A model generated the notes under the pieces. It ran no database searches, was not told the origin of the DNA, and was given only the letters and a program-made list of their open reading frames with translations. Shown here piece after piece: positions 28,096 through 62,506 of a stretch of DNA of 64,000 bases. Origin of the DNA: Octopus vulgaris (lineage: Eukaryota); NCBI GenBank assembly GCA_951406725.2, contig OX597840.1:14446001-14510000 (forward strand), in the 5' to 3' direction. Both the position numbers and the translations under genes were made by a program. The number at the start of each line of letters is the position of its first letter. The first letter of the stretch is position 1.

Positions 28096-28204
28096 ATATA
28101 TATATAGTTAATCCAAACATGAACAAAGAGAAAATACAAGAATGCAAGGATGTGGAATAAGTATAGTGTTATTGGATGCTCAGGAAAGGAAAGAAAGAAG
28201 GAGG

Positions 28205-28239
28205 ATTTAACATTTCAAGCGGAGCTCTTCATCAGAAAT
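28205..28239 (-). ncRNA. Minimal hammerhead-like motif inside a TA-flanked dispersed repeat (~28105-28322)
   Basis: Minus: ATTT-CTGATGA-A-GAGC(tcc)GCTT-GAAA-TG-TT-AAAT. Second family member at 61071. Confidence 0.7.
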
Positions 28240-28859
28240 ATAGCAAAAAGGAAAAAGTTCTAGAAAGGGAAGACAGAGAAAGAAAATCGCCAATGATACA
28301 CACGCAGTCACATATTGAAACGACTGGAAGGGAATGGGTGAAGAAAAAGTTCTATATATATATGTATGTATGAATATATAGATATATACGTTTTTTTTAT
28401 TAATAATTAACTGAAATTAAAGTAATTGAGAGGCCAAGAGTTTTGTGTATTAGCATGTGTGTGTCTGTGTAAGTGTCTATGTATATCTCAGTATACACAC
28501 ACAGACACATATATATATGCACTCACTCACATAAATGCACATATTTTTCAAAGTGTATGTAGTGTATATATACGTGTTTGGGTATCTCCCATAAACGGCT
28601 ATTGTTCAGCTCTTAATGTTTCCATTGTCCCAAGCCTTGTTCCTGCGCCACCACAGCAGCCCAACCCAACAGATCATGTCCTTTTTGTTTCGCAGCAATA
28701 AAGATGTCAGGCTTTCCACAGTCTGACATCTCCAATGTGAGATGTGAGGCACAAGTTAGATAAACACGTTACAACCACTCGGCTTTGGCATTTAAGGTTA
28801 GAGGATACATTGGACAACATGAAGTATGAGGTGCTGGAAAAAAGACATGAGATATACTC

Positions 28860-33960
<5,101 letters not shown>

Positions 33961-34668
33961 CATTTCTAGGTGAGCTTATGATTGTGTGTGTGTGTGTGCG
34001 TGTGTGTGAATGTGTGCACCCATACCTATATATTTACTATTACTTGTATCTGGTTGGTGCTAATGCCTTCAATCAATTTCATATGAGTATATATCAGTAT
34101 ATATATATATATATATATATGATGGGCTTCCTTTAGTTTCCGTCTACCAAATTCACTTGCAAAGCTTTGGTTCGCCCAAGAATATAGAAGATGATGCTTG
34201 CGCAAAATGCATACAGTGAGACTGAACCTGAAACCATCTGGTTGGGATGTAAGCTTCTTACCACACAGCCACATCTGTACCTATAAAGACGTATTCATAT
34301 GCATCGGCCACAATATAATTCACTGAGAATATTTGCTGTACAGAAGCAAAGTTGTAAATACAAAATATATCTGAAGTCTTCTTTACATATAAAACCAATT
34401 CTGCCTACCATACATATCATCATCATCACCACCACAACCACCATCATCAGCATCATTGTTGTCATCCCTATCATCACCACTCTACCACCATCATATACCA
34501 TCCCCCAACATGTATACAATGCCACCATTCCCCCACCCCACCCCATATACACTCAATATGTCTGTCCAATTCTTGTCATTTCCCAACCACATAATTCTTG
34601 TTTTTTTTCCATTCTTCCGCTTTTTACCTTAATTTTCCCATCCATTAACTATGTCTCCCTCTCTCTCT

Positions 34669-58885: not shown

Positions 58886-59255
58886 CTTTTCATTTTCGTG
58901 TGTGTTCTTGCTCCACTCACTCCATTCTGTTCCTCTAATATGTGTATCCTTATGTGTACATGCAATTGTATCATTGCGTGTGTGTGTCTTATAGTTTTTA
59001 GCAGTAGCACAATGGGGTGAGAGGTTGGGGGTGTAGGGAAGTCCAATCTGCTGCTAAAAACTATGACACACACACAGGCACAGTAATAAACGAGTGAAGA
59101 AAGCAAAATATAGTGCGTGTGTTTATTTGGCAAAAAAACAAATAAATAAATAAAAAAATATAATCACCATCTCAAAATAGAACAATATCTGTTTCAACAT
59201 GCAATTTCACATCAGGAGTTTTGCAAAATGAATTGATAAATGTGTATATATATAT

Positions 59256-60082
59256 AATGGAAATATTAAAATTACTAAGTCTCTCTAAAAGAGAACAACG
59301 GCAGCGTTCCCGGAAAATAATAGTTATCGCCATACTAATATGGCATTCTTATAAAAATAAGAAAAAAGCTGTCCGCTTATTAGCTCCATGAGGCCATCGC
59401 CTTAAGTTAGCTATTTGATACACAAACTGTATCCATATAACCTTCGAACAAGGGAGGTCAGTCGCTCCACACTACTTGGCCGGCAGCTACAGACGCGTTT
59501 CGGGGTATTGCCCCTTTTCAATGCAGCGTAGCCAGACCAGTAGGTGTCGCTTCTGACAATCTCTGTTCAAAGGTTTTATTTACCTAGCTTCGGTGGAATA
59601 CATCCACTTGTTTTCAATAATAGAAATATTAAAATTACTAAGTCTCTCTAAAAGAGAACAACGGCAGCGTTCCTGGAAAATATTAGTTATCGCCATACTA
59701 ATATGGCATTCTTATAAAAATAAGAATAAAGCTGTCCGCTTATTAGCTCCATGAGGCCATAGCCTTAAGTTAGCTATTTGATACACAAACTGTATCCATA
59801 TAACCTTCGAACAAGGGAGGTCAGTCGCTCCACACTACTTGGCCGGCAGCTACAGACGCATTTCGGGGTATTGCCCCTTTTCAATGCAGCGTACCCCGAA
59901 ACGCGTCTGTAGCTGCCGGCCAAGTAGTGTGGAGCGACTGACCTCCCTTGTTCGAAGGTTATATGGATACAGTTTGTGTATCAAATAGCTAACTTAAGGT
60001 GATGGCCTCATGGAGCTAATAAGCGGACAGCTTTATTCTTATTTTTATAAGAATGCCATATTAGTATGGTGATAACTAATAT
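59256..60082. mobile_element. Tandem 363-bp direct repeat plus 191-bp inverted copy (Penelope-like pLTR architecture), TA-flanked
   Basis: Units start at ~59256 and ~59619; 59680-59870 is mirrored by 59892-60082. Confidence 0.85.
59487..59526 (-). ncRNA. Minimal hammerhead, U3:A8 variant (second copy 59850-59889)
   Basis: Minus: CTGCA-TTGAAAA-GGGG(caata)CCCC-GAAA-CGCG-TC-TGTAG; palindromic stem III ACGCGT, GUC triplet. Confidence 0.75.
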
Positions 60083-60777: not shown

Positions 60778-61070
60778 GTAAGGGCACTTATCTTAGCAGA
60801 CGTCACTAACAATTTGACTCCATTTGACCTCACTATAAAAATTTGACCTGTTGACATTTTAACCCACTCTGCTTTGCATTTTTTCACTTTTTGTAAATTT
60901 GAAGAATTTGATAAAAAAAAATTAGTATGAAGTTTCCAACATCTAGTGAGTTCTTAACTGTATCATTGTGTTATCTTCACTCTCTTCCCCTGTGAATTCG
61001 TGACCGCGTGTGTACCGTTGGCGATTCTTTTTTCCTCTGTCTTCCCTTCTCTGGATTTTCCTTCTCCTAT

Positions 61071-61105
61071 GTTTCCGACGAAGAGCTCCGCTCAAAACGT
61101 TAAAC
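61071..61105 (+). ncRNA. Minimal hammerhead-like motif (same family as 28205)
   Basis: GTTT-CCGACGA-A-GAGC(tcc)GCTC-AAAA-CG-TT-AAAC within repeat ~60985-61205 that ends in (TA)n. Confidence 0.6.
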
Positions 61106-61744
61106 CCTCCTTCTTTCCTTCTTTCCTGAGCATCCAATAATACTATATTTGTTCCACGTCCTCGCGTTGTTGTGTTTTTTTGTGCTTTCTTGAATGGATT
61201 AACTATATATATATATATATATATATTTGAAGTTTTTCAATATATATGAAGATTTTTTTTTTAAACGTTCTTCTACAGAAGTAATTAAAGAAAATTTATT
61301 TATTGAAAAATACAGAACTTGCCTAAATATTAATGCATAACCAACTTTGGTCTCAATATATTTTTCAATTCATGATCACATATCCATCACTACATATTTC
61401 ACCTCACTAACTTAGCTCATCAGGTTTTGTATGTTTATTTATACCACCCCAAAAATGAATTATTCCCTCCCCTATCCTGAGTAATAACTATCACCAGTTA
61501 CCTCTCTTTAGGTTTTTCTACTTGTTGATTCATTCACAAACTTTCATACAAGAACATGGACTAAAATCTTTTTAAGAAAATACAAAATTACAATAATTTC
61601 AATGTCATAATTAGCGAAAGCAAAACCAGTCGACAACCACAATACTCTTTCCTTTAAAATATATTAAAATTATATAAACTGTGTGTATTTTGCTCATTTT
61701 ATATCATATATATATATACAGTGGCAATATGACCATTCCGAAAT

Positions 61745-61790
<46 letters not shown>

Positions 61791-61805
61791 ATGCAATAAT
61801 TTCAA

Positions 61806-61838
61806 TGTCATGATTAGTGAAAGCGAAACCGGTTGACA
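61806..61838 (+). ncRNA. Ultra-minimal hammerhead-like motif, A3:U8 variant (decayed twin at 61603-61635)
   Basis: TGTC-ATGATTA-GT(gaaa)GC-GAAA-CCGG-TT-GACA; twin TGTC-ATAATTA-GC(gaaa)GC-AAAA-CCAG-TC-GACA. Confidence 0.6.
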
Positions 61839-61929
61839 AACACAATACTCTTTTATTCAAAATATATTAAAACTATGTAAACTGTGCATTTTCCTTCTTT
61901 TATCTGATATATATATATTTTTGCATTGC

Positions 61930-62466
61930 AACTCACAACGTGGGGATAACCGAAATTCACTTCCTCCATTTTCTTACTTTATATATGTATGTACATATGT
62001 ATGTATAGTTGTAGCCAGTTTTTTTCTAGCATAGAGGATGTAAAACTCTTGTTTCTCATCCATTTCTCTCCTCTGAAATTTTCCCTGAAGACTCTCTGAA
62101 ACTGATTCTCCACTCCTAGCAGCAAGTTCATTGCACTCATTTTATGTACTTTACTACTACTACTGTCACCGTGATCACCCAGGCTATCAGATGTTGCTAC
62201 ACATCGCTGGTCACAATGCGCTTCGCATTGTTTTAGTCTCCAAATCACGCCACCCCACTGGCTAATCTAGCAGGTCAACAGAAGAAAGAGAGAGAGAAAG
62301 TTGTGGCGAAAGAGTACAGCAGGGATCGCCACCACCCCCTGCCAGAGCCTCATGGAGCTTTAGGTGTTTTCGTTCTATAAACACTCACAACGCCCGGTCT
62401 GGGAATCGAAACCGCGATCCTACAACTATGAGTCCGCTGCCCTAACCACTGGGCCATTGCACCTCC
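61930..62466 (-). mobile_element. tRNA-derived CORE-like SINE with a longer 3' region
   Basis: Head at 62390-62466 matches the 22805 and 53493 copies. Confidence 0.7.
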
Positions 62467-62506
62467 ACACACATACATATATACATATATATATATACAC
62501 ACATAC

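Follow-up and report, generated by a model that had tools for sequence, protein, structure and literature searches.

Position 8 of the hammerhead is the source of the general acid, and how it pairs with position 3 has been studied mainly with engineered mutants. In work by Przybilski and Hammann from 2007, all four Watson-Crick 3:8 pairs were reportedly active in two natural type III ribozymes. Minimal hammerheads (min-HHRs) occur in the pseudo-LTRs of metazoan Penelope-like elements (PLEs; Cervera and De la Pena 2014, PMC4209133), and those published cut weakly even as dimers. Minimal palindromic Penelope hammerheads of the dimer type, a natural U3:A8 core and stems II of 2 bp are already known (PMC4209133, PMC3088659). 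By our own count, Fig. S3 of PMC4209133 presents 56 motifs, several of them 34 nt long: 53 have C3:G8, 2 have U3:A8, 1 has U3.G8 and none has A3:U8. When a type III hammerhead was scanned through all its double mutants, the 3:8 pair was rescued by the G:C swap alone (PMC9901934), a result that counts against activity of an A3:U8 core. Hammerheads are also found in non-LTR retrozymes, homogeneous arrays in which non-coding monomers of 170-400 bp carry a canonical ribozyme (PMC7229834). No natural A3:U8 hammerhead was found in the literature searched, whose coverage leaves out Lunse 2017, Przybilski and Hammann 2007, Nelson and Uhlenbeck 2008a/b and Hammann 2012.

The window, by which we mean the whole 64,000-nucleotide stretch of Octopus vulgaris DNA analysed here, carries two copies of a hammerhead motif with A3 and U8, on the same (+) strand and spaced by 203 bp. 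A 33-nt consensus had been derived from them in a preliminary description. In hammerhead numbering, this 33-mer comprises stem I UGUC/GACA, the core A3 U4 G5 A6 U7 U8 A9, stem II GC-GAAA-GC, G12 A13 A14, A15.1-CCGG-U16.1 and C17. It matches the window at two sites only, the first with 3 mismatches and the second with 2, and 100 shuffles gave no match; neither window copy is identical to it. The same 33-mer is present unchanged elsewhere in the genome (L029:1513-1545), which, together with the family-wide frequency of A3:U8 given below, bears out the consensus at the family level. We consider it somewhat probable that the window motifs are decayed, likely inactive minimal type I hammerheads with an A3:U8 core, lying in the 3′ pseudo-LTR of a Neptune-like Penelope element that is abundant in the genome and whose intact members are predicted to be slow cutters acting as dimers of two motifs.

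The locus consists of two insertions separated by a (TA)n microsatellite (61752-61787), a sequence that is the usual target of such elements (PMC8557442). Insertion 1 opens at its 5′ junction with an inverted piece of the element's endonuclease ORF (61233-61280, - strand), identified by reverse-orientation matches to L006, L007, L032 (2138-2093) and L060; 5′ inversion is typical of Penelope-like insertions. The last codons of a GIY-YIG endonuclease (EN) ORF follow (61282-61340, + strand), with a translation ending in KENLFIEKYRTCLNINA and the stop at 61338-61340, and belong to a 5′-truncated Neptune-like Penelope element; in longer family copies this ORF end runs on from ORFs encoding reverse transcriptase (RT), linker and EN. 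The 3′ UTR or pseudo-LTR of insertion 1 occupies 61341-61750 (+ strand), and the span 61282-61787 matches L032 at 81% and also aligns with several other copies. Motif copy 1 (61603-61635, + strand; A3 at 61607, U8 at 61612, predicted cut after 61631) lies 260 nt past the EN stop codon. Insertion 2 (61794-61980, + strand), delimited by alignments to family copies, is a short 5′-truncated pseudo-LTR copy that starts about 40 nt upstream of its predicted cut and holds motif copy 2 (61806-61838, + strand; A3 at 61810, U8 at 61815, predicted cut after 61834). The unit repeated in the window exceeds the motif, with about 135 bp aligned, and the motif is contained in a dispersed repeat for which a first look at the 2.8-Gb genome gave 1231 candidates, 40 of them scored. 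Elsewhere in the window, about 62277-62468 is taken up by a short interspersed repeat that is abundant and also present in L015 and L022, and 30001-34000 is an extreme simple-sequence array of about 4 kb with 3-11% GC and a GC skew near +1.

Both window motifs are decayed. Copy 1 carries G5A (61609), G12A (61622) and a stem III palindrome broken at 61628 (ACCAGU), and copy 2 carries C10.2U (61818), which leaves a G.U pair in stem II, and C17U (61834). Each of the five changes is a transition, and four fall on CpG sites. Copy 1 is predicted to be inactive, its stem III self-duplex being computed at +1.4 kcal/mol versus -8.3 kcal/mol in intact copies, and folding prediction gave no hammerhead fold for copy 2, neither alone nor as a homodimer. 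Contigs of four runs with four organism labels (one run possibly being the source sample) carry the same family, and their majority letters at 61609, 61622, 61628 and 61834 are back in the hammerhead state. With G5 and G12 lost from copy 1, the window copies do not stand as a working pair.

The two copies are 80% identical to each other versus a median of 83% among 2701 other copy pairs, rank only 58th and 51st of 75 as each other's neighbours, and differ from the family majority at 10 and 15 positions, with 1 difference in common. The low mutual identity and the single common difference indicate that they are old and did not arise by recent duplication. Their description as "duplicated" is therefore misleading. 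In our reading, tandem or repeated insertion at a (TA)n target left the direct pair as a by-product and not as a selected ribozyme pair; the locus is ordinary transposon debris, a fossil.

Other hammerheads are found nearby. A direct repeat with a 363-bp period, 97% identical and with an inverted third part, occupies 59254-60082 and has one type I hammerhead per unit (59487-59526 and about 59850-59889, - strand), each built on a U3:A8 core, with a 4-bp stem II of GGGG/CCCC and a palindromic CGCG; it is either retrozyme-like or the terminus of another element. Decayed copies of a different minimal hammerhead, of the C3:G8 type and with stem I GUUU/AAAC, a 4-bp stem II and an extra A after A9, lie at 61067-61105 (+ strand) and within 28096-28311 (- strand) in another abundant repeat. 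Three hammerhead families thus occur within 3 kb of window sequence. Elsewhere in the genome, L163-L191 (for example G000:C1:20002279-20004541) form a young family of 359-360-bp tandem arrays whose halves are inverted. Their hammerhead is a canonical type I with C3:G8, has the ACCGGU palindrome in common with the 33-mer and is missed by Rfam at its gathering score; these arrays look like a non-LTR retrozyme.

The A3:U8 pair is a property of the whole family. Searched with two degenerate motif patterns that allowed any letter at positions 3, 7 and 8, the genome yielded 387 and 728 matches, and 0 with the reversed controls, so that it holds more than 1,100 motif copies. In a hand count of the first 100 matches listed per pattern, A3 was present in 93 and 98 and U8 in 92 and 99, and none of these matches had both positions changed. 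A pattern requiring a change at both 3 and 8 found one genome-wide match, with G3/G8. Among 142 distinct copies from loci, a set from which copies with motif indels or without downstream flank were dropped, 123 have A3 and U8 in place of C3 and G8, and the other 19 differ by a single change.

Free variation at core positions in other copies, named in the preliminary description as speaking against a hammerhead, is not what the family displays. Five subfamilies (A1-A5) can be distinguished, and in A1 core mismatches affect 44 of 994 non-CpG letters (4.4%) versus 123 of 568 CpG letters (21.7%). The 19 copies chosen by ORF similarity alone have 15 mismatches in 266 non-CpG and 33 in 152 CpG letters. 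Fully intact motifs make up 5/71 copies in A1, 14/27 in A4 and 9/13 in A5. Genomic copies decay like dead DNA, from one fixed sequence and mainly at CpG. Rfam returned no hammerhead match in the window, L029, L272 or a canonical retrozyme-like locus, and its silence is uninformative because that canonical locus was missed too. The motif pattern had no match in metagenome contigs.

Comparison of subfamily majorities gives a different view from that of the decaying copies. Across the five majorities, none of the 20 positions in the core, stem II and stem III differs, versus 25 of 87 flank columns (Fisher p=0.003), the latter being ungapped columns of a gapped alignment that replaces an earlier ungapped comparison (57/117), and with core conservation somewhat overstated since A2 and A3 were collected with core-anchored patterns and indel copies were dropped. 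Searches with DNA or protein from beyond the core also recovered A1, A4 and A5. U4 G5 A6, A9, G12 A13 A14, A15.1:U16.1 and H17 are invariant in the majorities, and are broken in window copy 1 by G5A and G12A. The 2-bp GC/GC stem II and the palindromic ACCGGU stem III are likewise unchanged, as the preliminary description had them. Three of the 5 free positions differ (N7 from U to A; loop II from GAAA through GAUA to GAUU). The GNRA tetraloop is consequently not a kept feature: younger subfamilies have GAUA or GAUU/GAUG (728 matches). The three-way junction is complete, with a stem I of 4-6 bp, a stem II of 2 bp and a stem III formed as a 6-bp intermolecular palindrome.

Stem I changes in a compensatory manner. 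Pair 2.3:1.3 is G-C in 66 of 142 copies and A-U in 56 of 142. On the 3′ side of this pair the change arose when about 14 nt were deleted, and a G-to-A substitution on the 5′ side matched it. Of 13 copies of A5, the youngest subfamily, 6 show a second switch, from A-U to G-C at 2.5:1.5, and the stem grows from 4 to 6 bp across subfamilies. Taken together, these sequence patterns indicate that the hammerhead fold is under selection in the active lineage.

The host element can be classified from a longer copy. L193 has a 635-aa open frame with a Pfam RVT_1 match just below the cut-off (E=1e-6, 28.9 bits against 29.6) and a GIY-YIG match above it (E=2e-6), together with the motifs CGRPNCGTC (Zn-linker, CX2-5CxxC) and CSGC..H..H (GIY-YIG with CCHH). 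Judged on these predicted domains and the criteria set out in PMC8557442, the element is an EN+ Penelope-like element of the Neptune/Nematis type; (TA)n targets and inverted 5′-truncated partners agree with this assignment. In the full-length relatives L303 and L313 (families F and G), motifs on the same strand flank the ORF on both sides, which would place two of them in a single transcript. The A-lineage copies fetched are 5′-truncated or inverted, with no direct pair of 5′ and 3′ motifs. Of 20 close genomic motif pairs, found with a filter that missed the window pair itself, 19 are inverted and hence would not pair in cis on one strand. We saw no excess of insertions starting at the predicted cut among 25 matches to a pattern that detects about one third of random junctions: 23 are an older subfamily with the motif still upstream, one starts at the cut-site G after (TA)n, and one is truncated elsewhere. 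Family pieces occur in three runs guessed to be RNA, as contigs that carry no information on ends, strand or level; one such contig ends 1 base beyond the predicted cut and was not counted.

Related families, reached by protein search independently of the motif, have 3:8 pairs of their own. At the motif site behind the ORF, the young intact family F has U3:A8 in 10 of 10 motif matches and family G in 4 of 4; in family H, L229 has U3:A8 and a second copy U3.G8. Of the 37 rows of family I, whose stems I and III are different, 30 have A3:U8, 6 have A3.C8 and 1 has A3.A8. Family B had been taken as a clean C3:G8 sister on three pattern-selected copies. Among 28 copies it is mostly U3.G8 (17 rows, with C3:G8 in 4, U3:A8 in 2 and 5 unpaired) and has a 2-bp stem I, so it was left out as clean covariation. 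Families F and I have extra nucleotides in the core, and no hammerhead motif was found in family J (L228, L233). The 3:8 pair is thus Watson-Crick as A:U in the A subfamilies and I and as U:A in F, G and H, with family B and a sub-branch of I as exceptions. On a protein tree of 22 RT-EN rows, built without an outgroup and covering families of the source genome plus P0001, an AU test rejected a single A3:U8 clade (p=0.003), which implies at least two double switches between U:A and A:U unless 3′ ends have recombined.

Several features of these relatives were recorded separately. Family I (L242-L271), the second A3:U8 family, has a palindromic stem III of 10 nt and, following G12, an additional nucleotide that varies, and A3.C8 is fixed in one of its sub-branches. 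One parse of this family has U17 with A3 throughout, which weakened our earlier idea that window copy 2 is disabled by U17-A3 pairing. A very young Neptune-like family (L196-L221, L302, L303 and L307) comprises dozens of near-identical open ORFs of up to 782 aa, carries a U3:A8 hammerhead whose GAAA strand has one additional A, and is probably still active. The 3′ UTR of family J contains tandem repeats with CCAAT-like and TGACGT motifs.

Folding predictions point to a dimer. In a lone intact motif the hammerhead fold costs +1 to +3.5 kcal/mol, and the predicted monomer has A3 paired with U16.1 in place of the hammerhead. The homodimer minimum free energy (MFE) structure is the double hammerhead in 25 of 25 intact A1-A4 copies, held by a 6-bp ACCGGU duplex with the stem I strands swapped. 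In A5 it is the MFE structure in 0 of 5 intact copies, where a loop II self-duplex is favoured instead. At the family level the dimer requirement is therefore upheld as a prediction. Single-strand folding z-scores are near zero for the window and intact copies alike, as expected for a dimer motif. In the mechanism that we propose, two intact motifs would pair through ACCGGU and swap stem I strands to give the double hammerhead. By analogy with published Penelope hammerheads, this dimer may join the two direct pseudo-LTRs within one transcript, full-length or tandem; a slow, dimer-dependent cut would fall after C17, as the systems in PMC4209133 and PMC6765202 suggest. Again following the Penelope examples, cleavage might trim element RNA from read-through transcripts before reverse transcription.

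Other accounts of the same motif must be weighed. The window copies might be a locally duplicated working ribozyme, dimerizing in cis and with a role at the locus, and their position on the same strand 203 bp apart is the arrangement that a cis dimer needs. With G5A, G12A and ACCAGU for the palindrome in copy 1 and U17 in copy 2, with two copies no closer to each other than random family members, and with a region that does not fold as a double hammerhead, we regard this as extremely improbable. It is also improbable, to a lesser degree, that the motif is a relic without function, its A3:U8 pair having arisen by drift of an ancestral hammerhead in one master copy and having been passively carried since. 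The absence of change at 20 constrained sites beside 25 of 87 changed flank columns runs counter to such passive carriage, as do the compensatory changes in a stem I that lengthened through successive subfamilies, even though genomic copies decay neutrally and families can amplify from one master whatever their 3′ UTR contains.

A more serious competitor, which we nevertheless judge rather unlikely, is that the fold derives from a hammerhead and is kept as an RNA structure that cuts barely or not at all (for dimerization, packaging or as an RT/EN-binding site), A3:U8 being tolerated as catalysis matters little. Dimerization alone would conserve the palindrome and stem I. The residues fixed in the five A subfamilies nevertheless include G5, A6, G12, A13, A14 and an H17-compatible C17, which serve catalysis and not pairing, and 3:8, a tertiary pair of the catalytic core, stays Watson-Crick through at least two double switches. 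The loosened constraint in related families supports a structure that does not cut: A3.C8 and U3.G8 occur, a wobble or unpaired 3:8 is fixed in sub-branches of families I and B, cores have extra nucleotides and family J is without a detectable motif. G:C as the sole active double mutant at 3:8 in the scan of PMC9901934 points the same way. Returning to a cutting dimer, we suggest tentatively, and with less than even confidence, that A3:U8 is a selected working core, that at least two U:A/A:U flips took place while stem II shrank to 2 bp, and that A3:U16.1 pairing locks the monomer off until a second copy pairs via ACCGGU.

The value of these motifs lies at the family level, in the A3:U8 core and a natural series of 3:8 states. 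A3:U8 persists through five subfamilies and more than 1,000 insertions beside relatives with U3:A8 and U3.G8/C3:G8, and this graded series can be used to probe how free the pair is and whether selection acts on cutting or on shape alone. Since standard descriptors and Rfam miss such motifs, some elements reported as hammerhead-free may carry variants. If A3:U8 is indeed a selected working core, searches based on CUGANGA would overlook a large natural class of hammerheads.

Apart from the identity of C3 and G8, every testable feature places the A3:U8 family among the minimal Penelope hammerheads. It resembles the min-HHRs of PMC4209133 in its type I topology, its place in a PLE terminal repeat, a palindromic stem III (palindromic or absent there) calling for a dimer, the G10.1-C11.1 pair, a length of about 33-35 nt, many truncated dispersed copies, some of them inverted, and core covariation at 3:8 (U3:A8 there). 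It differs from them in the A3:U8 core, a stem II of 2 bp where theirs has 3-8 bp and the lack of an extra nucleotide after A9, and the list given in PMC4209133 includes no cephalopod. The initial characterization of the motif as extremely small needs qualifying, as its size falls at the low end of the published range and not outside it (34-nt motifs in PMC4209133, 2-bp stems II in PMC3088659). A diminished palindromic stem III, association with PLEs and dimer cleavage, here predicted, are common to the variants of Lunse, Weinberg and Breaker 2017, as described in PMC6765202 and PMC6466107. Natural core variants (Perreault et al. 2011, PMC3088659) likewise combine 3:8 covariation with stems II of two bp; the sole natural covariation named there is U3:A8, and section 8 of that work contains no A3:U8. 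Work on the Neptune clade (Craig et al. 2021, PMC8557442) uses descriptors built on a CUGANGA core, and the present family would escape them. Non-LTR retrozymes (Cervera and de la Pena 2020, PMC7229834) also place a type I hammerhead in short direct repeats, whereas the window holds two unequal, 80%-identical fragments of an element that bears an ORF.
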